NCBI GenBank assembly: GCA_026461075.1
Contig: JAPJNH010000042.1
Span: 40,166-104,165, forward strand
Source of the DNA: Chitinophagales bacterium
GTDB taxonomy: Bacteria > Bacteroidota > Bacteroidia > Chitinophagales > CAIODY01
Reading direction: 5' to 3'
DNA length: 64,000 nucleotides
Made by a program: the position numbers and the translations under genes. Positions 5,611 to 60,978 of this stretch are shown piece by piece. Numbering within the stretch: the first letter of the stretch is position 1; each line of letters starts with the position of its first letter. The notes under the pieces were generated by a model that worked only from the letters and a program-made list of their open reading frames with translations, did not search any database and was not told the DNA's origin.

Positions 5611-6795
5611 ATGTTACATTTTTTTTCTGCTAGTACGCGAATGGTGAATACCAAAAGAGGGGTAATGGAATTGATGGAATCGGCTATGGGTAGCGATTAT
5701 GCAAATGCAGATTTGATTATATTACATGCGTCGATTGGTCATAATTTTCAAGATTTAGTAGATCAAGCTCATGAAATGGCTCCGAATGCGCGTATCGTAG
5801 CAGCTTCTTGTTGTGGCGTTGTTGGAGTGGAAGGGGTGAGTGAGTCGATGAAAGACATAGCTTTAATGGCGGTTAAAGGCAAAGATTTTGCATTGGCAAG
5901 TGTAGATGGAATAAACGGACATAACTCCTATGAAAAATGCAAAGAAATGGCTTTGTCCATGAAGGCGGATAAGCCAGGTATCAATATGATTTATTTCTTA
6001 GGTTCTGGAATTGATATTGCCAATGATCTTTGCATTAAAGCCTTTGAAGAAGTGTTCGGTAAAGATGTCACGATATTTGGGGCAACATCTTCTGATAACA
6101 TGAAAGGCTTCGTTTCTTATCAAGCGGTTGATAATAAAGTTACGGAGCACGGTGCTTATGCGATTGGTTTTGCGGATCCTACTTTAAGCGTTGATACGCA
6201 AGCAACACATGGATTTGTAGCGGTGGGCGAACCATTGCTTGTTACGAAGTCGAATGGACATATTATAGAGGAGTTTAATGGTAAACCGGCTTGGGAAGAA
6301 TATACTCGCCGTTTAGGTTTGAGTGCTGATTCAACCTGCGGTGACACTATACCCGTCGGAGCATTAGGAGAGAAGTTAAATCCTGAATTGGCAAAAGAAT
6401 ATGGTAATCAACATATACTACGCGTTGTAACAAAACGTGTGGGCAATGATATGTATTATTCCACACAATGTCCTTTTGGAACTGAATTGTGGTTGACCAC
6501 CCGTGATGAAGATTTGATATTCTCAGAAATGGATCGAATGGTGAATGATATGATTACTCGTTCTAACGGTAAGCAAGCAGTTGCTGTTTTTCATGCAGAC
6601 TGTTTAGCTCGTGGTCGATTTTTGTTCAATAGAATTATTAAAGAAGAATTAGTAAGCCGTATGCAAAATCCATTCTATACCAATGGCGTTTGTCCTCCTT
6701 GGTTAGGCATGTATGGGTTCGGAGAATTTGCAAGATTAGGTGGCGAAAACACCTATCATAATTATACTACTGCGCTTTATGTCATTTATCGTTAA
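5611..6795 (+). CDS. FIST-domain signal-sensing protein (FIST_N + FIST_C)
   Basis: 394 aa and soluble. SCCGVVG-type motif in the N-terminal half and NGKPAWEEYTRRLGL-type motif in the C-terminal half. It lies directly upstream of a histidine kinase. Confidence 0.65.
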   Translation: MLHFFSASTRMVNTKRGVMELMESAMGSDYANADLIILHASIGHNFQDLVDQAHEMAPNARIVAASCCGVVGVEGVSESMKDIALMAVKGKDFALASVDGINGHNSYEKCKEMALSMKADKPGINMIYFLGSGIDIANDLCIKAFEEVFGKDVTIFGATSSDNMKGFVSYQAVDNKVTEHGAYAIGFADPTLSVDTQATHGFVAVGEPLLVTKSNGHIIEEFNGKPAWEEYTRRLGLSADSTCGDTIPVGALGEKLNPELAKEYGNQHILRVVTKRVGNDMYYSTQCPFGTELWLTTRDEDLIFSEMDRMVNDMITRSNGKQAVAVFHADCLARGRFLFNRIIKEELVSRMQNPFYTNGVCPPWLGMYGFGEFARLGGENTYHNYTTALYVIYR

Positions 6796-6806
6796 TTAGA
6801 ATTAAA

Positions 6807-9686
6807 TTGAGCGAAACGCCTTCCTATAATGAATTATTGCAATCCTATCGTGATTTGCAATTACGTGTTACTCGATTTTCTTCGGTTGAACAGGAGTTAA
6901 TTAATATTCGTGATCGATTGGATCATGAGTTGGTATTATATCGTCGACTTCAAGACTTTTCAAATGAAGCCATTAGTGAAAACTCCCTTATTGGTTTTTT
7001 TCGTAAAATTGTTGAATCTGTTGTTGATATCTTCGAGACTGAAGGTGCTATTTTTATGACCGATAAGGGTGATTTTTTTACCGAAGGTTATAATTTTAAA
7101 GAGGAGCAGGTTCAGCAATGCAAACAAACTATAATTAATTTCAGTAAGCGTTTTCGAGGAGGTACCGCCAATCGTATTAGCAATGCTGATTTGGAGAAAG
7201 AAGGTGTTGTTGATTTTGCGCGCGGTTTGTTTTATCATTTGAATGATAAAAGTTCAGGACAGACCATCTATATACTTGGATTCATCTCCAAGGAAAAGGA
7301 TCCTTTATATAATGAGTTTTTAGTTCGTCATGAAACGATTTTTGCTGTTTTTGCAGAACAAGTACGCGCTATTCTTGGCAATCTAATAAAATCTGTACGC
7401 CTTGCTGAAAACAGTATTTTATTAAAGCAGCTTTCTCTAATTGCAACCAAAACAAAAAATGGTGTCATCATCTCGGATCGATTTGGGAATATTGAATGGG
7501 TTAATGATGCGTTTGAGAATTCGACAGGATATACATTAACGGAGGTGAAAGGTAAGAAGCCAAAGGACTTCCTTCAAGGCGAAGAAACCTCTCCGGAATC
7601 AAAGCTAAAGTTGTCCATAGCATTAAAGAATAGAGATACGGTTGAAGTGCCTGTGGTTAATTATACCAAAGAAGGGAAGCCGTATACCGTTATGCTGGAA
7701 ATTACTCCTATTTTTAATGAGGAGGGACAGCATATTAATTTTATTGCATTACAAAAGGATGTTACGGAGGAGTTGAAGTATCGCTCAGAAATTCTTCGGA
7801 TCAATCAACGTTTCGAACAGATTAGTAATAAGTCTGAAATCGGTATTTGGGCCTCGGAATTTGAAACACATAAAGTCGAATGGAATGAGGTCATGTATCG
7901 AATATATGGGGTTCAACGCACAGGTGAAGAGCTAGATTATTTCAACTTATGGCTCAGTCATATTCATCCAGATGATTTTAATTCTGTGAATGAAAATATG
8001 CATGCCATTGTTTCTGGTACCATTGATCGAGTAGATGAAGAATATCGAATCATTCGTTCAGATAATAAGGAGGTAAGAATTCTTAGTACACTGACCATTG
8101 CAGAAAGAGACGCAGATGGGAAGTTGATTCGATTAATAGGAACATCTACTGATATAACGGAGCGTAAGTCTGCCGAGCAAAAACTTAAGGCAAGTGAGGA
8201 AAAGTATCGTGTGATTATCGATAATATGGCGCTCGGATTGGTGGAGGTAGATTTGGAAGAGGAAATCCTTTTTAACAATAAAAAGTATCTGGAGTTCGTT
8301 GGAGAAGGGAATGAATCTGATTTAATACTTGGGGCTAATCCTGAATCCACCTTGATGGAAAAAGTGGAAAATGGCTTGATTGTCAGCTATACGAAAATTG
8401 AGGATAATGTTTTTGAGGTTGAATTGAATGCAAGTGTTGAAGTTTCAAAAACACTTTTGCTAAGTACTAGTCCGATTTATCAAGGAGATTCCTTGAAAGG
8501 GTATATTAGTATTTACTTAGATATTACGCCGATAAAATCGCTGCAACGAAATCTTGAAAATGCACTATTAGAAAGAAATGAATTCATTCAGCAAATTGAT
8601 AGTGTAAAACAGTTTTATGAAAGTGTATTGAATCACACTCCGTCAGAAATAGCCGTTATAGATGCGAATGCTAAGGTGTTATTTGTGAACAATCATTGGA
8701 GAGAAAATGAAAGTGCTTGGAGTAAATTAAACGGTCAATCTTTATTGCAAATTGCGCAAAATAATCTTTCTGAATATGATTCTATTCGTAATTTGATTTA
8801 TAAATTAAATACGGCAATGGCTCAAAATAGTCTATTGCAATTTGAAGAAGAACGTGCTAGCGGTGTAGGAAGTAGTACTTCTATTTTAAGAAATATTCTA
8901 CCGTATTCTAATGAGGCAGGATTATTAGAGTATTTAGTAGTTTCTGGTACAGAGATTACCGAATTAAAGCAAATTCAAATAGATCTAGAATCAAAGAACG
9001 AAGAGTTGAATAAGATCAATTCCGAACTAGATAAATTCGTCTACTCCGTTTCACATGATTTGCGATCTCCATTATTAAGTATCAAAGGTATTTTAAGTTT
9101 GGTATTTAAAACCGCTCAACTTGACGAAAAAACACAACAGTATCTTAAGTTGGCAGAAACCTCTGTATTACGATTGGACGGTACCATTAAAGAAATACTT
9201 AATTATTCCAGAAATGCTCGTTTTGGAATTGAGTTGGATGAGTTTGATTTGTCCAATGTAATTAATGCCGTTATTGATGATTTACGTTTTTCTGAAGAGT
9301 CGAAGGTTAATTTTATGGTAGAGATGCCAAATGAATTCCTTTTAAAATCAGATAAAATGCGGGTGGAGGTGATTCTCAAAAATTTGATAGGAAATGCGGT
9401 GAAATATGCTCGAAAGGATATTCATGACGCCTATGTTAAAATTACCGTTTCACGGAGTGTCAATGAATTTGAAATAAAAATAGAGGATAACGGAGAAGGA
9501 ATCGCTGAAGAAAATCTAAGTAAGATATTCGACATGTTCTATCGTGCCACTAGTTCTAGTGTTGGGACAGGTCTTGGTTTATATATTTGTAAAGAAATGG
9601 TTCAAAAATTAAACGGAAAGCTATTTGTGGAATCTGTCTTGAAAAAAGGTAGTATATTCACTTTAATACTTCCAGCTAATTCTTAA
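6807..9686 (+). CDS. Cytoplasmic multi-PAS sensor histidine kinase (TTG start)
   Basis: No TM helices. Several PAS/PAC units (e.g. GYTLTEVKGKKPKDFLQGEE; HIHPDDF...YRIIRSDNKEVRIL). HisKA H-box FVYSVSHDLRSPL. HATPase N/G boxes GNAVKYA, DNGEGI, GTGLGLYICK. Confidence 0.9.
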   Translation: MSETPSYNELLQSYRDLQLRVTRFSSVEQELINIRDRLDHELVLYRRLQDFSNEAISENSLIGFFRKIVESVVDIFETEGAIFMTDKGDFFTEGYNFKEEQVQQCKQTIINFSKRFRGGTANRISNADLEKEGVVDFARGLFYHLNDKSSGQTIYILGFISKEKDPLYNEFLVRHETIFAVFAEQVRAILGNLIKSVRLAENSILLKQLSLIATKTKNGVIISDRFGNIEWVNDAFENSTGYTLTEVKGKKPKDFLQGEETSPESKLKLSIALKNRDTVEVPVVNYTKEGKPYTVMLEITPIFNEEGQHINFIALQKDVTEELKYRSEILRINQRFEQISNKSEIGIWASEFETHKVEWNEVMYRIYGVQRTGEELDYFNLWLSHIHPDDFNSVNENMHAIVSGTIDRVDEEYRIIRSDNKEVRILSTLTIAERDADGKLIRLIGTSTDITERKSAEQKLKASEEKYRVIIDNMALGLVEVDLEEEILFNNKKYLEFVGEGNESDLILGANPESTLMEKVENGLIVSYTKIEDNVFEVELNASVEVSKTLLLSTSPIYQGDSLKGYISIYLDITPIKSLQRNLENALLERNEFIQQIDSVKQFYESVLNHTPSEIAVIDANAKVLFVNNHWRENESAWSKLNGQSLLQIAQNNLSEYDSIRNLIYKLNTAMAQNSLLQFEEERASGVGSSTSILRNILPYSNEAGLLEYLVVSGTEITELKQIQIDLESKNEELNKINSELDKFVYSVSHDLRSPLLSIKGILSLVFKTAQLDEKTQQYLKLAETSVLRLDGTIKEILNYSRNARFGIELDEFDLSNVINAVIDDLRFSEESKVNFMVEMPNEFLLKSDKMRVEVILKNLIGNAVKYARKDIHDAYVKITVSRSVNEFEIKIEDNGEGIAEENLSKIFDMFYRATSSSVGTGLGLYICKEMVQKLNGKLFVESVLKKGSIFTLILPANS

Positions 9687-10099: not shown

Positions 10100-10720
10100 A
10101 TGCGATATATTTTGATTTTCTTATTGTTTTGGCAATATAATGCACAGGCAAAAAAGCTTGTATTGAATCCTTGTCAAATTCGAGTAAGCGCCATTCGTCC
10201 CGCTTTTCCTCTAACTAAATTCTATGGGGTAATAGGAGATGGTCCAATACACCCAATGATTGAAGTCGGGACTAGTTTTAATTGGAATCATTCACCTAAA
10301 AACTGTTTTTCCCAATCTATAAATATCGGCTTTGCCTATCACCGTTTTCTGCAAAGCATGCTACCTATCTACTCTGATTTAAACTATATGCGTATGATTA
10401 GTTTTAAAAAGCAGAAAATTGGCGCAGGTTTATCTCTTGGCGCTGGCTATTTACATAGTTTTCCATTAACAGATCAATTTAAAATGGTGAATGGTGTCTA
10501 CGAACAAGTAGGGCGATTGGGGCGTTCACAAGCGATGTTGAAAGTAGGTGCTTTTATACGTTTTAAGCAGTTTACATTTGGGTATAACAACATCATTCAA
10601 ACCCCATTTGTTAAAAGTTATGTGCCGTTAATGCCTTACAATTGCTTGAGCCTTTCCTATACGTTCAATTCTAATTGTTGTGTTTCTCCAACTAAAAAAT
10701 CTACTGATGCGACTAAATAA
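10100..10720 (+). CDS. Hypothetical secreted protein, possibly a small outer-membrane beta-barrel
   Basis: Signal peptide (MRYILIFLLFWQYNAQA). Alternating hydrophobic pattern, with LSLSYTF near the C-terminus. No recognisable catalytic motif. Confidence 0.45.
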   Translation: MRYILIFLLFWQYNAQAKKLVLNPCQIRVSAIRPAFPLTKFYGVIGDGPIHPMIEVGTSFNWNHSPKNCFSQSINIGFAYHRFLQSMLPIYSDLNYMRMISFKKQKIGAGLSLGAGYLHSFPLTDQFKMVNGVYEQVGRLGRSQAMLKVGAFIRFKQFTFGYNNIIQTPFVKSYVPLMPYNCLSLSYTFNSNCCVSPTKKSTDATK

Positions 10721-11876
10721 ATTTTTTTTGTTTCTAAGTGTTTTCACACTTATAACATGGAATGCGTGTCGTAAGGCGGAAACAAATGCTTCATCGGCAT
10801 GTACGGTAGAGGCGCCTAAAAGTCATCCTAAATCTGTCGCCTTTCAATCCTTGATGGATGAGGCTACGAAAGCCGGATTGCCTGGTATGAGCTTATTGAT
10901 CGCTGATTCAAATGGCGTCTGGTACGGAGCTTCCGGTATGGCTGATATCGAATCTAATATAGCCTATCAACCTTGCTCGGTACAAAAATTAGGTAGCATT
11001 ACAAAAATGATGATGGCGGTAATGGTGATGAAATTGGTGGAAGAAGGCAAAGTAAATATCGATGATAAAGTCTCGAAATGGTTGGATGCAAAGACTATTG
11101 ATGGTATTGCCAATGCAGATCAAGTAACGCTCCGCAATTTAATGCAACATGCCACTGGTATTTATGATATCATTCGTAGCAGCGATTTCTATTTGGCGGT
11201 TTTACATAATCCAAATAAGCACTGGACTGGCGAGGAATTACTGACTTATGTAAGAGGGCAGGCTGCGGTATTTACAGCTAATACAGAAGTGCGTTATTCA
11301 AATACCAACACTTTGCTTTTAAGCATGTGCATCGAAAAAATTACGGGCCGTCCGCACAATGAATTACTACATGAAAAGGTGATTGACCCAATCGGGATGA
11401 CGAATACCTATTATCATACACATGATGCATTACCAGCCATTACTGCGCAAGGATACTATGATTTGTATAATAAAGGGACCGTTTCTAATGTTAGCAACAT
11501 CGTAACAGGAAGTGGAAATGGGTTTACGGGTGTTTATAGCAATGTCTTCGATTTGCAGAAATTCGTGAAGGCGGTCTTTATCAATAAGACTATTCTCAAG
11601 CAAAGCACTTTGGATACCATGATGCAATGGAAGCAGAACTCGCCAGATACCGACTTTGGTTTAGGTTTATTTAGGAAGAGCCTTGGAACTAATAGCACTG
11701 AATACCGAATTGGTCATACCGGAGGCGATTTAGGTTATGCCTGCGAGATGTATTATTTCCCGCATAACGGCCGATACTTTATTTTGTGTGTCAATTATGG
11801 CACAGACAGCGATAGCTACTTAAAACCGACTTATGTGCAATTGGTGAAGGATATCGTGACGGAGATGAAGAAGTAA
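10707..11876 (+). CDS. Serine hydrolase of the beta-lactamase / class C (AmpC-like) fold, lipoprotein
   Basis: SxxK (SVQK) and YxN (YSN) motifs. Lipobox LITWNAC after the ATG at 10707. The track start at 10680 would overlap the upstream gene and precede the signal peptide. Confidence 0.8.
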   Translation: MRLNKFFLFLSVFTLITWNACRKAETNASSACTVEAPKSHPKSVAFQSLMDEATKAGLPGMSLLIADSNGVWYGASGMADIESNIAYQPCSVQKLGSITKMMMAVMVMKLVEEGKVNIDDKVSKWLDAKTIDGIANADQVTLRNLMQHATGIYDIIRSSDFYLAVLHNPNKHWTGEELLTYVRGQAAVFTANTEVRYSNTNTLLLSMCIEKITGRPHNELLHEKVIDPIGMTNTYYHTHDALPAITAQGYYDLYNKGTVSNVSNIVTGSGNGFTGVYSNVFDLQKFVKAVFINKTILKQSTLDTMMQWKQNSPDTDFGLGLFRKSLGTNSTEYRIGHTGGDLGYACEMYYFPHNGRYFILCVNYGTDSDSYLKPTYVQLVKDIVTEMKK

Positions 11877-11879
11877 TGC
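11796..11879 (+). repeat. Direct repeat DR1-left (the functional 3' end of the hydrolase gene)
   Basis: 84 nt. 80/84 identical to 12747-12830 by hand alignment. Confidence 0.9.
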
Positions 11880-11899
11880 GGATACTTTATTTATAAGTA

Positions 11900-12622
11900 T
11901 TAATGACCCAATATCATTTTTCTGGTGCCCTCCTTTCCTACATTAAATAAAGTATCTATTATGGAAAGATTGGCAACGAATGGACCGTTAATTTGTGTGT
12001 ATTCTTGAGGGGTATAATCGGAGTAAATTAGCTCAATATTTTTTTTTATAAATACGTCCTCTTGATTATATTTTCTAGCTCCTGTTCCGGATAAATATTT
12101 ATTAGCTTTGAAATGTAAGCAAATGTTTAAGTTACGTTCGTTTTGTGTTCCTAAACTTCCATCATCAAAATGCGAAGCAATTTTAATGGTTGTGTGGATA
12201 TTTAATTGATTCAATATCCATAAGATTATTTTGGTGTTGAACGCCGCTAAATTTGATGCAGGCTCTAAATAAAGTTTTTCTAATTCTGGATAAAATTCTT
12301 TGAAATAGGGTGCCTTGAAATACGCGTCTTTTATTTGATTTAAGTGCTTTAAATGCCATTTGGTGCTATAATCAAGTTCTAATTCATTGTAATTCTGAAA
12401 TGCTCCTTTCGATTTTTTTACAGATACAGACAGTAATACTTTTTCACCCGTTTTACCTTTGATGTAATTTCGAGCTGCAGGACTTTCTTTAGGAAATTGA
12501 ACATTATCAAGAAAAACGAATGTATCACTATGGGCAATTTTATAAAAATAGCCTAGCCATGGGATATAGTTGGGTTGGTGTATAGCTATAATACAAGAAG
12601 TATCTTTTGAATTTGCAGTCAT
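11900..12622 (-). CDS. WbqC-family protein
   Basis: N-terminal IHQPNYIPWLGYFYKI motif and an overall length of ~240 aa, typical of the WbqC-like family seen in O-antigen/glycan clusters. No other glycan gene lies next to it here. Confidence 0.7.
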   Translation of the reverse strand: MTANSKDTSCIIAIHQPNYIPWLGYFYKIAHSDTFVFLDNVQFPKESPAARNYIKGKTGEKVLLSVSVKKSKGAFQNYNELELDYSTKWHLKHLNQIKDAYFKAPYFKEFYPELEKLYLEPASNLAAFNTKIILWILNQLNIHTTIKIASHFDDGSLGTQNERNLNICLHFKANKYLSGTGARKYNQEDVFIKKNIELIYSDYTPQEYTQINGPFVANLSIIDTLFNVGKEGTRKMILGH

Positions 12623-12746
12623 TCTTTATTTTATAATTCAATGCTCAAATGGTTTGAAACAACTTAAACCTCGCACTAAGATAGGTGTTTTAAACCACAT
12701 TAGAAATCAAAACTCAAGTCATTCAGCGAGAATTAATTTCAGTCTA

Positions 12747-12830
12747 TATGGCACAGACAGCGATAGCTATTTAAAACCGACGTATGTGCAATTGGTGAAG
12801 GATATCGTGACGGAGATGAAAAAGTGATGC
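12747..12830 (+). pseudogene. Direct repeat DR1-right: orphan duplicate of the last 26 codons plus stop of the hydrolase gene
   Basis: Encodes YGTDSDSYLKPTYVQLVKDIVTEMKK*, identical in protein to the end of 10707..11876. The upstream part of track ORF 12570..12827 has no similarity to the hydrolase. Confidence 0.85.
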
Positions 12831-12890
12831 CTAGTATAAATCTAATTTCTTTGAAAGAAAGAAGATTGATTCAGCAATTAAACTACTTGC

Positions 12891-13343
12891 TTAGTTGAAT
12901 TGCTGCTTTTGTAATTCTACCAGTTTTACAATTGATGAAACAATATTGGCAAAAACAGTTTTGTTCCCTTTGTAAAAGTAATCGGTAGCTCCGTTACGGA
13001 TAGTTTCAATGGCAATCTCTAAATCGTCTTGACCTGAAACCATCATGACTACCGCAAATTTGTTTTTTTGTTTGATAGCTTTTAAAATGTCGATTCCAGT
13101 TAAATTACTGTTTGAATCGAAATAATAATCTAGTATTATTATTCTAAAATCTTCAGCTGTAAAATCTTCTAAGAATGATTCCCCATTGGTATAAACATCC
13201 ATTCTCATTTTGCATTCATCATACAAAAAATCACCAAGCATGGTAGTAAAGGATAAGTCATCGTCTACTATTATGATTTTCGGCTTTTTGATACCCTCTG
13301 GTATCGCTTTCATTTTTTCTAAAGCTTCAAAAATTGTGATCAT
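12891..13343 (-). CDS. Orphan single-domain response regulator
   Basis: IIIVDDD, ILDYYF (acceptor Asp), MVSG and YFYKG motifs. No kinase is adjacent. Confidence 0.85.
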   Translation of the reverse strand: MITIFEALEKMKAIPEGIKKPKIIIVDDDLSFTTMLGDFLYDECKMRMDVYTNGESFLEDFTAEDFRIIILDYYFDSNSNLTGIDILKAIKQKNKFAVVMMVSGQDDLEIAIETIRNGATDYFYKGNKTVFANIVSSIVKLVELQKQQFN

Positions 13344-13574
13344 GATTAGGGAACTATTGTTGACTGAACGAGCGAATGACGAGTTAAAACTAAAAATTTA
13401 TTTTTGGAATATAAGGAGCTAATGGTGGTTTTGTTTTCCAGTGTGGATGATATTAATTATTTTATTATTTTTAAGAATAATTCTATTTGCAATGAAAAAC
13501 TTTAAGGCTTGATTTTTAAACTTGATTGCTTTTATTGATAAAAATGAATTAGAATCGTACTTAATTGCTTTAAA

Positions 13575-14018
13575 TTGAAACAAAACATCCATTCTCACTT
13601 TCTTCAACTAGCATCTGGCAAAGTTCAATTGCTGCAAAAGTGTTTGGAGGATTTGAAAGAAAGTGCCACTAACGAAACCAAAAGCACCGCAGGCGATAAA
13701 TACGAAACGGCTTTAGCTATGCTTCAAATCGAGCAAGCCAATATTGGTAAGCAATTAGAAGAAGCCTTAGTACAACTTCGTTTTTTTGAAAAGTTGAATC
13801 CGCAAATTATCACTATAAAAATCACAAACGGAAGTTTAGTAAAAACCAATAGAGGATACTTTTATGTTAGTGTTGCTTTGGGAAAGGCAATGATTGATGG
13901 CGTTGAAATTATAGCATTATCAATGCTTTCGCCATTAGGCAATAAATTTAAGGGTTTAAAACCAGGAGATCAATTTGAATTGAACGGAAATCTGTTTTTG
14001 ATTGAAAGTGTTTACTAG
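13575..14018 (+). CDS. GreA/GreB-like protein (coiled-coil N-terminus, Gre C-terminal-like domain), TTG start
   Basis: The C-terminal segment IIALSMLSPLGNKFKGLKPGDQFELNG resembles the GreA C-terminal SPxGxALxGxxxGD motif. The start codon is uncertain. Confidence 0.55.
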   Translation: MKQNIHSHFLQLASGKVQLLQKCLEDLKESATNETKSTAGDKYETALAMLQIEQANIGKQLEEALVQLRFFEKLNPQIITIKITNGSLVKTNRGYFYVSVALGKAMIDGVEIIALSMLSPLGNKFKGLKPGDQFELNGNLFLIESVY

Positions 14019-14042
14019 AATCAAAAGTGATTATTCTCCTTC

Positions 14043-14140
14043 CTTGTGCATAGTGCAAGCCATGAAAAATGCGGGGAAAATGTAATTCAATTCCCCTAAA
14101 ACAAAAAAGCCTTTCTTTTCAGAAAGGCTTCTTGTGATCC
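14043..14140. repeat. Repeat copy A: 98-nt duplicate of the spacer, terminator and first nt of the tRNA-Lys 3' end
   Basis: 93/98 identical to 20268-20365. It contains the hairpin AGCCTTTCT-TTTC-AGAAAGGCT flanked by A-run and T-run, a bidirectional terminator between 13575..14018 (+) and 14198..15799 (-). Confidence 0.9.
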
Positions 14141-14197
14141 TAACATTACCAGATTTCTTGTTTTATTCGGTAACATTTATAAGTGAATTAAACACAC

Positions 14198-15799
14198 TTA
14201 AAAATGTTCAAACTTCTGTAAGGAAAGTCTCTTCCCATTTTTACTAAACATAGCAAAATACTGGCCGGGCAATAATTTGGAGATATTGATAGTTTGTTGG
14301 CTTTGCGTTAGCTCATAAGTGCTTATTTGCTTGCCAACCAGATCATACACCGTGAATTGAATAGGAAAGCCTATTTGATTGTCTTTAATTTTAATACTTA
14401 ACTCATCACTGCTTGGGTTGGGATACAGTAGTATATTTAATGCTTGCGTGTTAGAAGCAGTAGGCGGATCAAATAGGCCTGTCTCCACACCACAATCATT
14501 TGGACTAAGACAACCATCAGGGCTTAGACGAAGCAGCCAGCCTTGTTGACTGATAAAATTGGGAGCGACTTTTTGAATAAATATATTGCCTAATACTATA
14601 ATTGAACCATCAGAAAGGTAATCAAAATCATCAAATTCATCAGTAGTTAAAAAATTTGGAATAGGGTGGCTTCCAATATAATTTCGTTCCCAGGTAGTAT
14701 TGCCTAATGTATCTGTTTTGACAAGAAATCCGTAAAACCCTGAAATAGAGGTATCTTTTGAATTTACATGTCTTTCGCCTACCATTAAAAGGTTGCCTTG
14801 ATTAGGGACTTGTTTTATTTTATTTAAGCCAAAATACTCTGTTGTGTCTGCGTAGGTCTGTTTATATAATCGCTGATAATTACTATTAAATTTATAAAAT
14901 GATGGTTTTAGATAAGCGTTACCACTGCCATTGGGGTAAGAAAATCTGTTTATGATGTGTTTCCCACAGCCATAAAATCTGTTATTAAAGAAGATGGTTG
15001 ATTGAGAAGCATAGGCATTACTATCAGAATAATTGTGAGTTGTTACTAAGTTGCATGCGGTGTCTAATTCATAAATGTAGTTAATAGTATGTATGTGATA
15101 AATAGGGTCAGTAATATTCAAGTTACTATCTCCAGAAACTGTTAGATATAGTTTGTTGTTGTGAAATAAGATTGAATTAGTATAAATATTTGACCTATCA
15201 AACAATGAATCAATAGTTTTATGTACGAAATTTCCATTGCTATCTGTTTTAATAATAAATGGATGTGTGGGGTGGTGTTCGTAAATTGTTTTAAGTTCTT
15301 TTTGTGTAACACCTGCTATGTAAAAATTTTTTGTTGCATCCATTGTTAAACAATATCCTGAGTATATCTGAACTGCGGTATCTTTAGCATCAAACAGTAG
15401 AGTGCCATTTAAATTAGTATCTACTTTTAAGAGAAATACATGGAATGGGGGGCGATAATTAGAGTTTGAATTGGTATCAATTAAATAACCTGTAAGATAA
15501 ATATTTTTCTTCCAAATCAATTCACTATTTCCTTGTGGAACAAATTGCATAATTCCACTTTTTCTATAATATTTATATTGGATAAGGTTTCCATTTGCAT
15601 CAAATTTTGCCACAAAGGTTTTTAAACTATTAAAAGTGCTATCATTAGTGTAACCTGTTACATAAATATTGTTATCTATCACATTTATAGCAGTAGTAAC
15701 TACAGCTTGACTATCTAATACAAATGTTTTGCTGAAGTTTTGTGCAAGCAAATAATTAGCTTGTAACAATAACATTAATAGAATTATTTTTCTCATCAT
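14198..15799 (-). CDS. T9SS cargo protein with repeated beta-propeller-like units
   Basis: Signal peptide from MMRKIILLMLLLQANYLLAQ. The track start at 15832 lies inside a hairpin loop, so the ATG at 15799 is preferred. Repeated D.NGN motifs. C-terminal LYPNPSSDELSI... sorting domain. Confidence 0.75.
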   Translation of the reverse strand: MMRKIILLMLLLQANYLLAQNFSKTFVLDSQAVVTTAINVIDNNIYVTGYTNDSTFNSLKTFVAKFDANGNLIQYKYYRKSGIMQFVPQGNSELIWKKNIYLTGYLIDTNSNSNYRPPFHVFLLKVDTNLNGTLLFDAKDTAVQIYSGYCLTMDATKNFYIAGVTQKELKTIYEHHPTHPFIIKTDSNGNFVHKTIDSLFDRSNIYTNSILFHNNKLYLTVSGDSNLNITDPIYHIHTINYIYELDTACNLVTTHNYSDSNAYASQSTIFFNNRFYGCGKHIINRFSYPNGSGNAYLKPSFYKFNSNYQRLYKQTYADTTEYFGLNKIKQVPNQGNLLMVGERHVNSKDTSISGFYGFLVKTDTLGNTTWERNYIGSHPIPNFLTTDEFDDFDYLSDGSIIVLGNIFIQKVAPNFISQQGWLLRLSPDGCLSPNDCGVETGLFDPPTASNTQALNILLYPNPSSDELSIKIKDNQIGFPIQFTVYDLVGKQISTYELTQSQQTINISKLLPGQYFAMFSKNGKRLSLQKFEHF

Positions 15800-15812
15800 T
15801 GAATACATTAAT

Positions 15813-15850
15813 CTTACCTTCCCCCTATCCATTGATAGGGGGAAGGTAAG
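15813..15850. other. Perfect 16-bp GC-rich inverted repeat (hairpin) between two cargo genes
   Basis: CTTACCTTCCCCCTAT-ccattg-ATAGGGGGAAGGTAAG, read directly from the sequence. Confidence 0.8.
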
Positions 15851-15865
15851 GAATTAATTTAAAAT

Positions 15866-16957
15866 TTATTTTTGAATAATGAAATTGCCTTGACCGATTA
15901 TATTATTATCGCAAATCAGTTTATAGTAATATGTCCCATCTACAAATTGAGAAGCGTTGATAATTTTTAGGGATTGTGTGCCTGTTACTTCTTCTATTAA
16001 AACATTTACACCTTGGGTATTGAATACTTCAAGATGTGCTGCATAGTTGCATGGTACTTTGTATTCAAAGGCTACATAACTGTTGGATGGGTTAGGATAC
16101 ACTTTTACGTAATTTTTAATATCGGTAATAGGTTTTGTAACTTTTGCTTTTGGTTCAGATTTACGCATTTCAGCTTCATCTGGTATTTCAGGATAATTTC
16201 TATAATTACCATCATAAAAGAAATTTATTACGTTTTTAGCTTTTGTGCCTGCTAAGCTACTATGGCTATCAGCAAATTTTTTTAGGTCGGCAAGGTTTTG
16301 ACTGCTTAATTCATTCATGCTTTGCTCCGATTTCAGCCAACTGATTTTTAAATTTAACCAATCTCTAAAATCGGTTTGCTCGGTTTGCTGTTTTTCATCT
16401 AAAGTATATTTGAGTGGGATGCTATCGGTAATTGTGTTTGCTGTTGCAATATCTCCATCTTCGAGATATTCTTCAGCCAACATCATATCGGCTTCAGGAT
16501 TTTGTAATAATACTAACCAATGCCGATGAGTATTATTGTCGAAACCAATAGAATCATTTTGCTGGCTATAGCTTACCTCACGATAGGTTTGCATCATATT
16601 GCTAACGGCTGCTGCATCATTGCGATTAAGAATAGTACGATAGGTAACTTGGTCGGCATTAGCGGTGATAGCTTCATACATCCATTCAGGAAATTGACTT
16701 TGCTCTACCATTTCTCTTAAATGGTCGTCAAATGCTGGTTGACGTGTTACATCAGGGTTTGCCATTAAAATTTCAAACACCACAGCATCGCCAAAAATGC
16801 TTATTTGATTGCATAACTCAAACAAGGCATCCATACTTAAGAATGGCGATTGATTTAATAACTCTAATCTACGTGCTTGCACTTCGGGTGCTAAGGTGGT
16901 GGCAACTTGGTCAACTAATTGAACGGTATTCCCATTATCAATTAGGCTGTTGAGCAT
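15866..16957 (-). CDS. T9SS cargo gene remnant lacking a signal peptide (probably 5'-truncated)
   Basis: C-terminal VYPNPSNSYVAFEY... sorting domain, but the N-terminus MLNSLIDNGN has no signal peptide. The frame stays open upstream of the first ATG until a stop at 17009-17011, inside repeat copy B. Confidence 0.6.
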   Translation of the reverse strand: MLNSLIDNGNTVQLVDQVATTLAPEVQARRLELLNQSPFLSMDALFELCNQISIFGDAVVFEILMANPDVTRQPAFDDHLREMVEQSQFPEWMYEAITANADQVTYRTILNRNDAAAVSNMMQTYREVSYSQQNDSIGFDNNTHRHWLVLLQNPEADMMLAEEYLEDGDIATANTITDSIPLKYTLDEKQQTEQTDFRDWLNLKISWLKSEQSMNELSSQNLADLKKFADSHSSLAGTKAKNVINFFYDGNYRNYPEIPDEAEMRKSEPKAKVTKPITDIKNYVKVYPNPSNSYVAFEYKVPCNYAAHLEVFNTQGVNVLIEEVTGTQSLKIINASQFVDGTYYYKLICDNNIIGQGNFIIQK

Positions 16958-16995
16958 ATTATCGTAATAATAATGTTGCCCTTTTTGATAGTTGA

Positions 16996-17044
16996 AATCT
17001 GTTTCTTTTCAGAAAGGCTTCTTGTGATCCCGCTGGGACTCGAA
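16996..17044. repeat. Repeat copy B: half terminator plus the last 20 nt of tRNA-Lys
   Basis: 17002-17044 matches 20337-20379 at 42/43 positions. Its single difference from copy C (C instead of T) is shared with copy A. Confidence 0.9.
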
Positions 17045-17382
17045 AAGGAATTTTAATAATGCTGTTAAATTTCGAATCGTTGAACAGTTGCCTTGCGCAT
17101 TAGGCATATATTAGTTAAAAGTGAAAGCCATTTGTTGTTTTATATACTTCAAGAATTTTTTTTGAAAAAAATGTTTTAAATATAAATTACTTAAAAACAA
17201 TTATTTAACGTCATTAAATGCAAAAAAAAACTATTGCTCATTTCTAGGGTATTGCATATATTAATAATGTAATGTACATTGTGCAAAGCCTTGGCATGTA
17301 CTCCTCTTGCTAAGACTAAACAATAAGCCTATTTCTTTCAAAACCTTTGAAATTATTAATCACTAACTAAATAGCATTTAGA

Positions 17383-19824
17383 ATGAAAAATCTACTAATA
17401 ATTATTTTTACTTTAATCGCGTTTAAGTCATTCGCGCAAATGCCACCAACCAATACCATTGGCGATTGGCAATGGTCGAGTAACTATGCAACAAGTTGGG
17501 ATAAACAAAATTATATGCCCGACTATTCAAATACAATACTTTATGTCCATGAGGATTCCTTTTCCAATGTTATAAGTGTAGGAATTACAACAAAACATAC
17601 CATACTAAAAAACTTAAATGGGCTCCACACAGGTTATGATTCTATTTATCCTAGTGACAAAATTGGACAGATGGGTGGAATCATTACAAAATATGATTGT
17701 GCAGGAATGGTAATATGGTCGCATTTAATTGGGGTTAAAAAAAGTTTTTCAAGTGCTGGTCGCTTATATATGGCAGATGCTTTAACTGACGAAGGTGGTA
17801 ATACTTACCTATATATTTGTTGTGAATCGGCTGACTTTTTGGATACTGTATGGTTTGGAAATAAAGTGCTTGCGATGCCCTATAGCACGAATTCGCCTAA
17901 TTACAGAAATATAATGACAAAAATTGATGCGAATGGGAATATTGCATGGGTAAAAGACTTTCAAGACGATTTCTTAATTAATAATTATTTAACATTAGCC
18001 CCTCATCAAAATAAACATTTTACAGCTTGGAGGTACACTATGACAGATTTTTATGATATTGGAAAAGGAGCGCATATGTTTAGTTTGTTGAATGACACTA
18101 TTCATTTTTTTGGAATGATTGATTCTACTTTCATTTTATTTCCGAACAATAACTTACATCCTCCAACTTGCCAATGGCCCGCAGCTGCTCGTCAACCGAC
18201 CCTTTTGGAAATTGCTGCACAATCAGGGAGCTTACTTAATAAATATCAATTTGTTCCTAGAAAATATTTGGGAGATACTACCTTATGGTCTTTGTATGAC
18301 TTAAAAGCAAACTTCGAGAATCTAGGACATGGGGAATTTAGAGCTATTATTGCAATTTCACCTACAGGACCAAAAAGTATGTGGGATTCATTACCGCCAA
18401 CTCCATTTTTGGACGCAATACTTTTAGGACGTAATTTTCCACTTTATATTAGAGGTGGTGCTCCTGAAGATTCGTATCGAAGATATTTCTCTTTAACCTT
18501 TACAAAAACGCATTTGATTTCAATTAATTTTTTAGGAGATTCAGTAGCAATTATTGATGCACAAAGTCATCCGAATATGCCACGTTATGAATTATTGGTC
18601 AGTGGCTCCCGAAACACAAAAATACTGGGCACTAATTTAGCTTTAAAATCTAAAGTAAAATCGAATGAACTTAGGCAACAAGACTATATTAATCAAGGCA
18701 CTCCATATTGGGCCTCACCTCTCGCTGTAACTGAAAGTGAAGGTGTTTTACAGCTAGGAAAAAATGATCAGTTAAATAGAATTATTCAAACCGATTCAAG
18801 TAATTTTGAGTTTTTTAGAAGCGTAGCATGTATTAAAAATCCTATTGCCTCTATTTATTCTATGGAATCCTATGCTACATTTACAACAACATTACCAGCA
18901 GAGGTAGCAATTCAAGGTTATAAAATAACGACTTCCAATATTATTGGGCAAGGGGGACTGATTCAATTCGATGGTAATTCAGGACAGATAATCAATCAAA
19001 ATCTAAGTAATAAACAGCTTAGCCGAGTTATCCCGTCAAACTATCCTGAGTTCCCTATGTGGCATTACTCAGAAATTTATCAATCAGAAAAAGGAAATAT
19101 TTACTATTATGGTCATTTACTTGGTGGTTGGAAAATAACTATCCCTGGGGACGACACAACAAAAGGTCAAAGTTCATCCAGTTTTCCTTATCCAGATGCA
19201 GACGCTTTGTTTATTAAATTCGGTAATAAATGCGGTATCAATTCAGATACCGTTACGGTGGCGCCATTAGAGCCAAGCTGGCTAAGCGCCAGCTGCTCAG
19301 ATGAAACAGGTATTGTACTTAAATGGGATGATAACTCCCATACAGAAATTGGGTATAAGATATATCGAGCAGTGAATAAAGGTTCCTATTCTTTACTTTG
19401 TACTTTACCTGCCAATTCAAAGGGTTATACAGATCATCTAGTAATACCTGCTTCAACGTACCACTACAAAGTGTATGCTTATAATCGTATAGACACCAGC
19501 TTTGCAGCTACGGTTAGTAAAACGCTTTGTTATGCCGATGGCACTGAGAATATCAATCCATTACAAACAAATGGAAGAATTTACCCAAATCCAAGTGCTA
19601 CTAATCATTTTACGGTGCTATACAATGCTACGCAAAATGAAACCGCAATCTTACGTGTAGTTAGTTTAAACGGTGCATTACTTTATGAAAGTAAAGTTGC
19701 AATCAATCCTAACGCTAATAGTTACGAAGTAGTATTGCCTAGCACCACACCTGCAGGAACGTATTTAGTTAGTTTAATTGGTACACAAACTATATATCAA
19801 GATAAAGTTGTGTTGGTGAAATAA
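17383..19824 (+). CDS. Large T9SS cargo protein with an FN3 domain
   Basis: Signal peptide MKNLLIIIFTLIAFKSFAQ. FN3-like LKWDDNSHTEIGYKIYRA...YHYKVYAYN. C-terminal IYPNPSATNHFTV... sorting domain. A terminator hairpin follows at ~19857-19890. Confidence 0.8.
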   Translation: MKNLLIIIFTLIAFKSFAQMPPTNTIGDWQWSSNYATSWDKQNYMPDYSNTILYVHEDSFSNVISVGITTKHTILKNLNGLHTGYDSIYPSDKIGQMGGIITKYDCAGMVIWSHLIGVKKSFSSAGRLYMADALTDEGGNTYLYICCESADFLDTVWFGNKVLAMPYSTNSPNYRNIMTKIDANGNIAWVKDFQDDFLINNYLTLAPHQNKHFTAWRYTMTDFYDIGKGAHMFSLLNDTIHFFGMIDSTFILFPNNNLHPPTCQWPAAARQPTLLEIAAQSGSLLNKYQFVPRKYLGDTTLWSLYDLKANFENLGHGEFRAIIAISPTGPKSMWDSLPPTPFLDAILLGRNFPLYIRGGAPEDSYRRYFSLTFTKTHLISINFLGDSVAIIDAQSHPNMPRYELLVSGSRNTKILGTNLALKSKVKSNELRQQDYINQGTPYWASPLAVTESEGVLQLGKNDQLNRIIQTDSSNFEFFRSVACIKNPIASIYSMESYATFTTTLPAEVAIQGYKITTSNIIGQGGLIQFDGNSGQIINQNLSNKQLSRVIPSNYPEFPMWHYSEIYQSEKGNIYYYGHLLGGWKITIPGDDTTKGQSSSSFPYPDADALFIKFGNKCGINSDTVTVAPLEPSWLSASCSDETGIVLKWDDNSHTEIGYKIYRAVNKGSYSLLCTLPANSKGYTDHLVIPASTYHYKVYAYNRIDTSFAATVSKTLCYADGTENINPLQTNGRIYPNPSATNHFTVLYNATQNETAILRVVSLNGALLYESKVAINPNANSYEVVLPSTTPAGTYLVSLIGTQTIYQDKVVLVK

Positions 19825-20267
19825 GGCTTCTTCGTAAGTTATTTATCATTTGCACAAAAAAGCCTCCAATAATTCTATTGGGGGCTTTTTTGTGCGCTAG
19901 GTCTATTCATAACACTAAGCAGTAATTTAACATCACATCTACTAAAATTGGGGCTTATTAAATAACATAGAAAACAGGTAATAATTCCAAATAGATTCAC
20001 ATCAATTCAAATCGAATTAAATCAATTTAAAAGGATATAACCAGAGACTATTTTATTCTTGTATACGAACGTAGGTGAGAATGGAAATAGAGCGATTAGC
20101 ATTAAAAGCGGTTGAAAATTATAGAGAATCCAATGCAATAGTGGCTATGCATTCACTTATTTATACCCATCAATTCAAAAGTAAATAACGACTTAGCTAC
20201 AAATTGAACCTGTTTACGGTGCAAATTCCGTGCAATATGCCTTCATTTTTATCCTCCAAGAAAAATA

Positions 20268-20365
20268 CTTGTGCACAGCGCAAGTCATGAAAAATGTGGG
20301 GAAAATGTAATTCAATTCCCCTAAAACAAAAAAGCCTTTCTTTTCAGAAAGGCTTTTTGTGATCC
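20268..20365. repeat. Repeat copy C (adjacent to and overlapping the 3' end of the intact tRNA-Lys)
   Basis: Partner of copy A. It includes the tRNA terminator hairpin at ~20333-20354. Confidence 0.9.
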
Positions 20366-20432
20366 CGCTGGGACTCGAACCCAGGACCCCAACATTAAAA
20401 GTGTTATGCTCTACCAGCTGAGCTACGGAATC
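20360..20432 (-). tRNA. tRNA-Lys (anticodon UUU)
   Basis: Minus strand reads GATTCCGTAGCTCAGCTGGTAGAGCATAACACTTTTAATGTTGGGGTCCTGGGTTCGAGTCCCAGCGGGATCA. It forms a cloverleaf with a 7-bp acceptor stem (one G-U pair), anticodon loop CUUUUAA and T-loop GGTTCGAGTCC. CCA is not encoded. Confidence 0.9.
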
Positions 20433-46407: not shown

Positions 46408-46434
46408 GTCATTTCCTTTTCGTATTTTTACAGC

Positions 46435-46792
46435 GTCAGTCAGGCTATCGCTCCGATTCGTCGGGGAGGAAAGTCCGGGCAGCATAGAGTACCGCACTTC
46501 CTAACGGGAAGGCTGATATTCGTATCAGACAGCTAGTCGTACAGAAAATAACCGCCTTATCGCTTGCGTTAGGGTAAGGGTGAAAATGAGAGGTAAGAGC
46601 TCTCGTCGAACTATAGTGATATAGTTGGAGATGAAACCTTGCGGGCTGAAAGACCAAATATACCAACGCTTGAGGGCTACTCGCTCGAGTTGGGTGGGTA
46701 GGTCGTTAGAGGTGTTTGGCGACAAACATCCAAGATAAATGATAGCCTCGTTCCGATTTCGGAATCAGACAGAACCCGGCTTATCGACTGAC
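46435..46792 (+). ncRNA. rnpB: RNase P RNA (bacterial type A)
   Basis: Universally conserved GAGGAAAGTCCGGGC at 46467-81 and ACAGAACCCGGCTTA near the 3' end. P1 pairing of GTCAGTC (5') with GACTGAC (3'). Confidence 0.9.
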
Positions 46793-46818
46793 ACGTTTGA
46801 CTTAAATTGAAAACAGAT

Positions 46819-59194: not shown

Positions 59195-60076
59195 GTGATG
59201 TTAAGGGATCAATTCATAGAATATTTGCTCGTTGAGCGGCGCTATGCTCAACATACTATAACTGCTTACAAGTCAGACTTGGAGCAGTTTTTTATTTATA
59301 TCAATCAATGCTACGGCGAAATCGAGCTGATGGAAATCAATCATCAGCATATTAGAAGTTGGGTCGTCGAACTAGTTTCTTCCAATCATACCAATCGCTC
59401 CGTTAACAGAAAGCTCTCTACCTTAAAGAGCTTCTATAAGTTCCTTTTGCGTGAAAACGCGTTAAGTGAAAATCCGATGGACAAGGTGACTGCGCCGAAG
59501 ATGTCCAAGCGTTTGCCCGTTTATGTGGAAGAACGACAAATCGAAGCGTTGCTCGATGCAGCCTTCTTTGATGAATCCTTTGAAGGCGCCCGTGATCGTT
59601 TAATGCTAGAAGTGTTGTATAGTTGCGGTTTACGCCGCTCCGAATTAAACAAGTTGACTTGGCAAACGATTGATTTGCATTTAAAGCAAATTAAAGTGCT
59701 GGGAAAAGGAGGGAAAGAACGAATTATTCCAATTGATGAACGACTAATTAGTCGGGTCAATAGTTTTCAATCCTTATGCAAAACGATGGATATTCAAAGC
59801 CCTTTTCTGTTTACCACAAGAGTAGGGGATATACTCAATGAAAAGGCCTTATACAGCATTGTAAAGCATTATTTGAGCCGTATTCCTGGTTTAGAGAAAA
59901 AGAGCCCGCACGTATTGCGACATAGTTTTGCTACGCACCTGAGTAATCATGGAGCCGATTTAAATGCAATTAAAGAATTATTAGGGCACTCGAATTTAGC
60001 GGCTACGCAAGTCTATACGCACAACAGTATAGAAAAACTAAAAAAAACTTTCAAGCAAGCGCATCCTCGCTCTTGA
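59195..60076 (+). CDS. xerC: Tyrosine site-specific recombinase XerC/XerD type
   Basis: N-terminal SAM-like domain, then catalytic R...HxLRHSFAT...LGH...Y (HVLRHSFATH, LLGHSNLAATQVYTH). Conserved rpsU-xer-hpf neighbourhood. Confidence 0.85.
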   Translation: MMLRDQFIEYLLVERRYAQHTITAYKSDLEQFFIYINQCYGEIELMEINHQHIRSWVVELVSSNHTNRSVNRKLSTLKSFYKFLLRENALSENPMDKVTAPKMSKRLPVYVEERQIEALLDAAFFDESFEGARDRLMLEVLYSCGLRRSELNKLTWQTIDLHLKQIKVLGKGGKERIIPIDERLISRVNSFQSLCKTMDIQSPFLFTTRVGDILNEKALYSIVKHYLSRIPGLEKKSPHVLRHSFATHLSNHGADLNAIKELLGHSNLAATQVYTHNSIEKLKKTFKQAHPRS

Positions 60077-60571: not shown

Positions 60572-60644
60572 GCCGAAGTAGCTCAGATGGTAGAGCAACT
60601 GATTTGTAATCAGTAGGTCGTCGGTTCGATTCCGTTCTTCGGCT
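60572..60644 (+). tRNA. tRNA-Thr (anticodon UGU)
   Basis: GCCGAAG acceptor stem, anticodon loop TTTGTAA, T-loop GGTTCGATTCC. One U-U mismatch in the T-stem by my folding. No CCA encoded. Confidence 0.85.
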
Positions 60645-60659
60645 CTTATTATTTTTTGG

Positions 60660-60742
60660 GGAGAGTTACCAGAGTGGCCAAATGGGGCAGACTGTAAATC
60701 TGCTGTTTTACGACTTCGGTGGTTCGAATCCACCACTCTCCA
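60660..60742 (+). tRNA. tRNA-Tyr (anticodon GUA), long variable arm
   Basis: GGAGAGT acceptor stem, anticodon loop CTGTAAA, T-loop GGTTCGAATCC. Confidence 0.9.
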
Positions 60743-60762
60743 CACTAACGTTCTTAAAACAA

Positions 60763-60835
60763 GCAGGAGTAGCTCATTTGGTAGAGCGACAGCCTTCCAA
60801 GCTGTAGGTAGCGGGTTCGAGCCTCGTCTCCTGCT
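60763..60835 (+). tRNA. tRNA-Gly (anticodon UCC)
   Basis: GCAGGAG acceptor stem, anticodon loop CTTCCAA, T-loop GGTTCGAGCC. Confidence 0.9.
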
Positions 60836-60902
60836 CTCCGGTTCACGAATAAAAAACGTGGAGTCCATGAGAGACCATCGTCCGTGAAGAGTGAACCAGT
60901 AA

Positions 60903-60978
60903 GCCGTTGTAGCTCAGCTGGTAGAGTGCGTCCTTGGTAAGGACGAGGTCACGGGTTCAAGTCCCGTCAATGGCTCCA
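60903..60978 (+). tRNA. tRNA-Thr (anticodon GGU), CCA encoded
   Basis: GCCGTTG acceptor stem, anticodon loop TTGGTAA, T-loop GGTTCAAGTCC, 3' TCCA. Confidence 0.9.

Follow-up and report, generated by a model that had tools for sequence, protein, structure and literature searches.

A tandem array of small recombinase-less modules with secreted-protein cargo at a tRNA-Lys gene of an uncultured Chitinophagales bacterium

A 64-kb stretch of DNA from a Chitinophagales bacterium (the window, to which all counts within it refer) carries, next to an intact tRNA-Lys(UUU) gene, two small modules, E1 and E2, set in tandem between three direct-repeat copies (A, B and C) of the tRNA-proximal sequence. Comparison with close relatives directly demonstrated an insertion relative to an empty site, the modularity of the insert, an arm shared by different modules, a deletion scar and the absence of recombinase genes. 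We favor, at a probability of roughly 0.6, the explanation that small integrative modules accreted in tandem at the tRNA-Lys gene by integrase-type recombination and then decayed. From these observations we infer the use of an integrase, the circular intermediates and the fate of the recombinase genes.

Three repeat copies at the tRNA-Lys gene

The tRNA-Lys(UUU) gene, which we take to be the integration target, lies on the minus strand at 20359/20360-20432 and is intact (ARAGORN; Rfam tRNA, 68.7 bits). It comes next after a PolX-like gene, as it also does in the relatives L002, L009, L010 and L011. A repeat finder delimited copy C, the tRNA-proximal block (20268-20379, minus strand), which comprises a spacer (20268-20328), a terminator hairpin (20329-20358) and the last 21 nt of the tRNA gene (20359-20379). 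Copy B (17002-17044, minus strand) holds half of the terminator and a displaced 21-nt tRNA 3' end (17024-17044), and is identical to 20337-20379 at 42 of 43 positions. Copy A (14043-14140, minus strand) is a displaced spacer and terminator followed by GGATCAC; it differs from 20268-20365 by 5 mismatches in 98 nt and is contiguous with the native flank. Copies A and B share a C (14131 and 17021) where copy C has a T (20356). A first-pass annotation, made from the sequence alone, had reported the copies, their identities and this shared C, all of which we confirmed, and the copies have no other occurrence in the window. Its description of a duplicated tRNA 3' end holds for copy B, with 21 nt rather than the 20 nt given. 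It does not hold for copy A, whose tRNA content is limited to GGATCAC, the last 7 nt. Copy A is essentially a 91-nt terminator-plus-spacer copy, not a copy of the tRNA end.

The hairpin core, a 19-nt tRNA core and a palindrome in the spacer were each confined to the copy sites within the window, and none occurred in 100 shuffles. On the tRNA strand, the hairpins of copies A and C both scored as intrinsic terminators. Spacer and terminator matched no known Rfam family, all sub-threshold matches being terminator look-alikes.

Read in the tRNA sense, the order is tRNA, terminator and spacer (copy C), E2 (20267 to 17045), copy B, E1 (17001 to 14141), copy A and a convergent 147-aa gene. This last gene (13575-14018, plus strand) has no family match and is the native flanking gene; in empty-site relatives it abuts the single repeat copy, and the left flank of copy A is collinear with the empty-site flank of L009 and L010. 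The G+C content of the whole 11.9-20.3 kb interval is lower than that of the conserved flanks.

Empty and occupied sites in close relatives

Metagenomes were scanned with a 23-nt pattern taken from the block. The collections are incomplete, and the scan missed one relative, contig L001, in which the pattern is present. It returned two contigs, L009 and L010, which share about 94-95% DNA identity with the window on both sides of the site. Both carry an empty site, made up of the 147-aa gene, one spacer-terminator block and the tRNA-Lys gene, so that the equivalent of position 14140 is joined straight to the tRNA. Relative to this arrangement the window has exactly 6225 nt extra, corresponding to one repeat copy and the DNA between copies. 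The stretch is a real, strain-specific insertion of about 6.2 kb relative to close relatives.

A scan of a genome collection with the PolX-like flank protein gave a single genus-level relative, L002, a Chitinophagales metagenome-assembled genome (MAG). This nearest relative in the collection shows 77-80% DNA identity and synteny on both sides, and it has 1.5 kb of other open reading frames (ORFs) between tRNA-Lys and a beta-lactamase-family gene. The comparison of occupancy among relatives that the first-pass annotation had proposed revealed a polymorphic site. Four states were seen among relatives that are 94-99.7% identical: empty (L009, L010); E2 together with a different distal module, X (L011); E1 and E2 (the window); and E1 with an undeleted cargo gene (L001).

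The larger interval from the beta-lactamase-family gene to tRNA-Lys (11877-20322) is itself variable among the relatives. A 6.6-kb biosynthetic cluster (KAS III, a metallo-beta-lactamase fold protein, an epimerase and an ATP-grasp protein; L010 2033-8670) replaces the WbqC and response regulator genes in L010, L011 has a gene for an Lcl_C-domain protein in this place (6102-7378), and L002 has two other ORFs (11880-13403) and neither the response regulator nor the 147-aa gene. A 38-nt direct repeat in L011 (6326-6363 and 7337-7374, 89% identical) has its copies near the start of, and just past the end of, the Lcl_C-domain gene (6275-7273), so that the variable region contains a further unit of gene size enclosed by direct repeats.

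Copy B ends in a deletion scar

Contig L001 (4195 nt), obtained by exact-protein look-up of the 544-aa protein encoded in E1, is 99.67% identical to the window from 17009 down to 13078, over 3932 nt. Upstream of 17009 it has no copy B; instead the frame of the 363-aa ORF of E1 runs on for at least 88 more codons. This extension aligns with a 503-aa homologue (P0001) from residue 28 onward and is therefore genuine coding sequence, part of a gene about 500 aa long. The window has the half terminator and the tRNA fragment in place of this frame, with the switch falling inside the 8-nt sequence AAAAGAAA (17002-17009) that is common to the hairpin and the truncated gene. Copy B therefore owes its half terminator to a microhomology-mediated deletion, of which it is the scar, and not to an att (attachment site) boundary, as the first-pass annotation had assumed. 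The deletion removed the rest of the copy B block, the tRNA-proximal end of E1 and about 135 codons of the cargo gene.

The junction at copy B is not an assembly artefact, since contig L032, from an independent read set, reproduces window positions 14111-17031 at 100% identity with this junction included. In L011 the counterpart of copy A (A') is likewise cut inside the spacer. Exact-match look-ups for E1 returned the short contigs L001 and L032 only, and L001 ends before showing what the deletion in E1 removed. A search for close full-length homologues of the truncated gene found only proteins of about 25% identity. The scar directly supports the alternative, also put forward by the first-pass annotation, of an accreted and decayed island.

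The modules carry T9SS cargo and no recombinase

Module E2 (17045-20267, plus strand; 3.2 kb) is absent from L009 and L010 and present in L011. It contains one cargo gene, and its non-coding DNA amounts to only about 340 and 440 nt at the two ends. The cargo gene (17383-19824, plus strand) encodes an 813-aa protein with a signal peptide, an fn3 domain and a Por_Secre_tail domain (Pfam, NCBIfam and homologues); directly 3' of it lies a hairpin (19852-19895) that by inspection reads as a terminator. The right end of E2, next to the spacer, is formed by a 42-nt sequence (TTCCGTGCAATA...AAGAAAAATA, 20226-20267) that is a candidate cis-acting arm. In arm and spacer the motif G[CT]GCAA reaches its window maximum, yet with just 3 versus 2 copies per 120 nt this signal is too weak.

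Module E1 (14141-17001, minus strand; 2.9 kb) is a remnant with two cargo genes whose tRNA-proximal part has been deleted; it is absent from L009, L010 and L011 and present in L001 and L032. One gene (15866-16957, minus strand) is 5'-truncated to a 363-aa ORF without a signal peptide, and coding sequence homologous to it reaches up to about 17009. The other (14198-15832, minus strand) encodes a 544-aa protein with a signal peptide, weak matches to SBBP beta-propeller repeats and a Por_Secre_tail domain; an NCBI protein annotated from a Chitinophagales MAG is 100% identical to it. A near-perfect hairpin with an 18-bp stem (15812-15851) spans the start of the 544-aa ORF and reaches into the short gap that separates it from the truncated gene; it is terminator-like on the plus strand, antisense to both E1 genes.

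The C-terminal sorting domain of the type IX secretion system (T9SS) was found in all three segment ORFs (Pfam, NCBIfam), and all cargo genes are accordingly predicted to encode T9SS-secreted proteins. The same three ORFs contained no integrase, transposase or transfer domain (Pfam, PADLOC, NCBIfam), no recombinase, helicase or primase domain was found in the island ORFs (Pfam, NCBIfam), and PADLOC matched no defence system in them. Searches for a recombinase relic by tblastn with three viral integrases and the Xer-like protein of the window were negative in the island and in the related loci. The first-pass claim that neither segment encodes an integrase, excisionase, transposase or transfer gene therefore stood. 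The 813-aa protein had no exact match on record, a PDB sequence search with both intact cargo proteins gave no matches, and AlphaFold2, given an alignment of 6 sequences, produced an unusable model of the 813-aa protein (mean predicted local distance difference test score 35).

E2 is a discrete unit, and its arm is shared with a second module

A homologue 67% identical to the 813-aa protein is encoded on L011, the flanks of which are 96% identical to the window. From the left, this contig carries the response regulator gene, the 147-aa gene, A' (the first 30 nt of the spacer only) and segment X, about 1 kb of unrelated DNA that encodes a small signal-peptide protein and occupies the place of E1. 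These are followed by a full-length 166-nt copy B', E2, copy C' and tRNA-Lys. The window and L011 have the same sequence where the 21-nt tRNA block meets the left end of E2. This identity and the full B' indicate that copy B was once full-length and that E2 is a discrete, repeat-bounded unit; the full-length B' is what a formerly full-length copy B predicted. Segment X was considered as the missing tRNA-proximal part of E1 and rejected, as the two have no similarity.

The 42-nt arm is common to B' and C' of L011 and to copy C of the window, and it is absent from the empty sites (alignment; 166-nt direct repeat). The unrelated modules X and E2 hence carry the same arm. At repeat position 89, a T occurs only in the tRNA-proximal copies of the genomes that bear E2 (copy C and C'), and a C in all displaced copies and in the empty sites. 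Copy C is probably the block that came in with E2. The allele pattern fits what is expected for a crossover within the last ~23 nt, the tRNA part. An origin of the right end of E2 as a decayed 3' end of the 147-aa gene was rejected, the nucleotide alignment score being within the shuffle range; tblastn with the 147-aa gene gave no collinear match on the gene strand, its best hit (E 0.08) being to the opposite strand of segment X in L011.

In a sliding comparison the ends of E2 were 91-98% identical between the window and L011, and the centre of the cargo gene (17486-19231) was 48-78% identical. This indicates that E2 was already present in the common ancestor and that the middle of the gene is hypervariable; E2 is old and shared by descent with this 96% relative. 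In L011 the hypervariable middle spans about 10100-11850, and the signal-peptide end, the fn3/sorting-domain end and both non-coding flanks are conserved. The differences of a third allele, on contig L012, are likewise concentrated centrally. The pattern is suggestive of diversifying selection or of allelic replacement affecting a protein that is secreted or at the surface. In L012 the allele (91% identical) is split into two overlapping ORFs of 273 and 532 aa (127-2539), and the DNA past the terminator of the gene (2620-2886) is unrelated to the right arm of E2. The 813-aa gene and the arm are therefore separable.

The tRNA block adjoins integrases in viral contigs

The 21-nt block occurs in 15 IMG/VR contigs, mostly within intact tRNA-Lys genes. 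In three of these (L025, L030 and L027) it forms a partial tRNA adjoining a tyrosine integrase. The att core thus does have matches in mobile elements; the first-pass annotation would have counted the absence of any such match against its reading. The integrases of L025 and L030 have the domains Arm-DNA-bind_5, Phage_int_SAM_5 and Phage_integrase, an architecture typical of Bacteroidota. The block of copy B begins precisely with T54, the leading T of the T-loop sequence TTCGA. In L025 the identity to the tRNA sets in at this same nucleotide, and the block is followed by an element-borne terminator hairpin and then by the integrase. Sites in the T-loop and at the T/acceptor junction form one of the two major attP classes in the Islander collection, in which the sequence of the island regenerates the target and the displaced fragment marks the end of the island (PMC4383910). 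In Riemerella, of the same phylum, the 10K island has a 53-bp att repeat at tRNA-Arg, and its integrase and attP suffice for integration (PMC6764341); in our reading of the printed sequence the distal part of this repeat is a terminator-like hairpin.

Searches of IMG/VR with the arm-spacer junction and with the junction of the tRNA block with E2 gave chance matches of 16-19 nt or none. Two other IMG/VR contigs (L022 2671-4254, L028 4-1581) carry large serine recombinases directly beside tRNA-Lys genes with the same 3' end, and the tRNA-Lys gene appears to be targeted by more than one class of recombinase in these communities.

Origin of the array

Under the favored explanation, each unit would have entered as a circle by tyrosine-integrase-type recombination, crossing over within the T-loop/acceptor region of the tRNA gene. 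Each would have brought along a replacement tRNA 3' end with terminator and spacer and displaced the old copy to the far side, so that successive entries could build a tandem array. The recombinase may have been lost by deletions like the one documented at copy B, or may always have been encoded at another place in the genome. There are published descriptions of tandem accretion followed by decay to cis-mobilizable elements (CIMEs) without a recombinase (PMC5704250). Of the two tandem integrase-mediated insertions proposed by the first-pass annotation, the insertion and the modularity of E1 and E2 were borne out by the relatives; the role of an integrase is still a matter of inference. The present array is most likely immobile, except for possible RecA-dependent loss between copies A and C, which are 95% identical, and its role would simply be to carry genes for variable proteins that are secreted or lie at the surface.

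Several observations weigh against this explanation. No integrase or relic was found at the locus in the window, L001, L002, L009, L010 or L011, and the three different modules (E1, E2 and X) are all without a trace of a recombinase. The repeats (98-166 nt) exceed most att identity blocks in length, the 7 tRNA nucleotides of copy A leave a junction that is not assignable to a known crossover subsite, and the allele pattern at position 89 concerns a single site. One E2 integration event probably accounts for the module in both the window and L011. In two distant genomes, homologues of the E1 and E2 cargo are linked with neither a tRNA nor a repeat present. In addition, a single gene next to the 3' end of a protein-coding gene is enclosed by an 84-nt direct repeat. 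The sequence concerned is the end of the beta-lactamase-family gene, whose final 84 nt, stop codon included (11796-11879), recur at 12747-12830 with 80 of 84 positions identical, and the two copies bracket only the WbqC gene (11900-12622, minus strand). L010, L011 and L002 have one copy of this sequence followed by different genes, and weaker similarity may extend about 25 nt further left of the repeat. Lying 1.2 kb left of copy A, this repeat hints that the route is not specific to tRNA genes. It could be a second decayed integration site, or a sign that homologous or homology-facilitated illegitimate recombination is a general route here.

The main rival, which we consider unlikely though worth serious attention, takes up this last possibility and dispenses with a recombinase. 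DNA from related strains would have been inserted by homologous or homology-facilitated illegitimate recombination, with one end anchored in the conserved tRNA/terminator or in a gene 3' end. An illegitimate join upstream of this anchor would have formed the other end and duplicated 80-170 nt of recipient sequence, and the tRNA would be no more than a convenient conserved anchor. Long direct repeats that are about 87-95% identical are as expected for donor and recipient copies of related strains, and the analogous 84-nt repeat around the WbqC gene (80/84) would be accounted for in the same way. A microhomology-mediated rearrangement is documented at copy B, another breakpoint lies within the A' spacer of L011, and the identity of the E2 cargo gene is mosaic, which is typical of recombination. 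This explanation also has no need of the recombinase that every module lacks. The limit of the E2 block inside the tRNA gene is, however, exactly T54, as in the integrase-linked attP-like site of L025, and without a cis-acting role it is difficult to see why the otherwise unrelated X and E2 should have an arm in common. Equally at odds with it is the clean one-copy versus two-copy relation between the empty and the occupied site.

It is less probable still that the modules are mobile, non-autonomous cassettes that never had a recombinase. In this case an integrase encoded elsewhere would insert and excise them in trans and so produce a tRNA-anchored array, each unit consisting of a T9SS cargo gene, the conserved 42-nt arm and a block of about 112 nt substituting for the tRNA end and terminator. 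Consistent with such cassettes are the presence at one site of three different small modules that all lack a recombinase, the conservation of the arm between X and E2, the intact and conserved ends of E2 and the precedent of CIMEs, in which units with att sites only are mobilized (PMC5704250). Nevertheless, the ends of E2 are shared with L011 by descent, so that a single E2 integration event is discernible, and both E1 and X show clear erosion. The E2 gene of L012 precedes unrelated downstream DNA, the arm and the E2 junction had nothing beyond chance matches in IMG/VR, and the only tyrosine recombinase of the window is an Xer-like, probably housekeeping gene 39 kb away.

It is very improbable that the feature is not mobile at all and reflects an assembly artefact or a family of terminator repeats with dispersed copies. 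The repeats do confuse assemblers, as seen from repeat-bounded contigs such as L032, whose ends coincide exactly with copies A and B. A dispersed family, which the first-pass annotation had raised as a possibility, is contradicted by the restriction of the repeats to three window sites and by the metagenome scan, which gave orthologous tRNA-Lys sites only, and the junctions are reproduced in the independent data sets L001, L032 and L011. Within the collections searched, none of the outcomes that the first-pass annotation had listed as refuting its reading was obtained.

Comparison with known systems

The accretion explanation has its closest parallel in the CIMEs and the accretion of integrative and conjugative or mobilizable elements (ICEs and IMEs) described for ICESt1/ICESt3 of Streptococcus thermophilus, which arise by site-specific integration followed by deletion (PMC5704250). 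Like these, the island has att-like flanking repeats, lacks integration and transfer genes and is arranged in tandem at the 3' end of its target gene. Candidates for attL and attR would be copies A, B and C, of which B is truncated and A is without most of the tRNA core, and the tRNA-proximal deletion in E1 may correspond to the deletion step. Unlike CIMEs, the island retains no ICE- or IME-derived gene to show its ancestry, and its modules are very small (1-3 kb, with 1-2 cargo genes). Its repeats are much longer, and its host belongs to the Bacteroidota and not to the Firmicutes. CIMEs excise and transfer once a related ICE has integrated next to them; the island is known here from sequence alone.

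The islands in tRNA genes (tDNA) that Islander collects (PMC4383910) resemble this one in that island sequence regenerates the tRNA and a displaced 3' fragment in direct orientation marks the end. The window has an intact tRNA with such fragments (21 nt in copy B; 7 nt plus the 91-nt block in copy A), copy B matches the T-loop/J subsite boundary, and L009 and L010 supply the uninterrupted site in related genomes. Islander requires an integrase gene in each island, however, and no tyrosine integrase was detected in this one by Pfam, PADLOC, NCBIfam or tblastn; copy A also has only 7 nt of tDNA.

The 10K island of Riemerella anatipestifer (PMC6764341) shares the phylum, a direct repeat at a tRNA with a terminator-like hairpin and an occupancy that is polymorphic among strains. 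It differs in its perfect 53-bp repeat and in having its own tyrosine integrase next to the tRNA, with which it integrates and excises experimentally. In the tycheposon-shaped islands of Prochlorococcus, as here, successive integrations at tRNA-proximal hot spots push older elements inward, and partial tRNAs and degenerate remnants lie between cargo genes (bioRxiv 10.1101/2020.12.28.424599). What defines tycheposons, however, is an integrase and replication modules of their own, and no recombinase or replication module stands beside a partial tRNA in this island; phylum and cargo differ as well. The viral contigs L025, L030 and L027 have the identical 21-nt tRNA-Lys block followed by an element-borne terminator, but their integrase lies immediately beside the block and they share no other sequence with the island. 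The array is also distinct from an integron cassette array, which has an IntI integrase with attI and cassettes that end in attC hairpins: no integrase adjoins it, and what is repeated is the region of the tRNA end and terminator, present once in empty sites, and not a cassette-borne attC site. IMEX elements and pdif modules are bounded by dif-like 11-6-11 sites that the housekeeping XerC/D recognize; the window has a Xer-like gene (59195-60076), and no dif-like site was seen by eye in the repeats, without a dif model for this lineage.

We regard the locus as an ordinary, partly eroded integration hot spot and not as a new kind of element. It shows with clean resolution, in nature and in an uncultured Chitinophagales lineage, how a tRNA hot spot accumulates and then erodes small cargo modules, with one erosion event mapped to the nucleotide. 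As it stands, this CIME-like finding confirms textbook behavior and raises no new question. The cargo is exclusively of the predicted T9SS-secreted type, one gene having a hypervariable middle, so such hot spots may add to strain-level variation of the surface and secretome in Bacteroidota. If the modules were mobilized in trans, the concept of CIMEs or cassettes would extend to this phylum; cassettes shuffled in this way would be functionally like integron cassettes or pdif modules, targeted to a tRNA gene and diversifying the secreted and surface proteome.

Other features of the cargo genes and the window

Two distant genomes (L013 10001-22511 and L014 500-9374) have homologues of all three cargo genes, at 43-70% aa identity, clustered within 5-8 kb. 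Their order there is a circular permutation of that in the window, with no tRNA or long repeats, and the DNA between them is variable, with an HNH endonuclease and unknown genes in L013 and a C14 peptidase and an IS110 transposase in L014.

The sole tyrosine recombinase of the window is a 293-aa protein of the Xer type (59195-60076, plus strand; Phage_int_SAM_1 and Phage_integrase), encoded 39 kb from the island and just upstream of a tRNA-Thr/Tyr/Gly/Thr cluster (60572-60978). The gene probably has a housekeeping role, with no evident link to the island. A class A bacterial RNase P RNA is present at 46432-46799 (plus strand, 261 bits).

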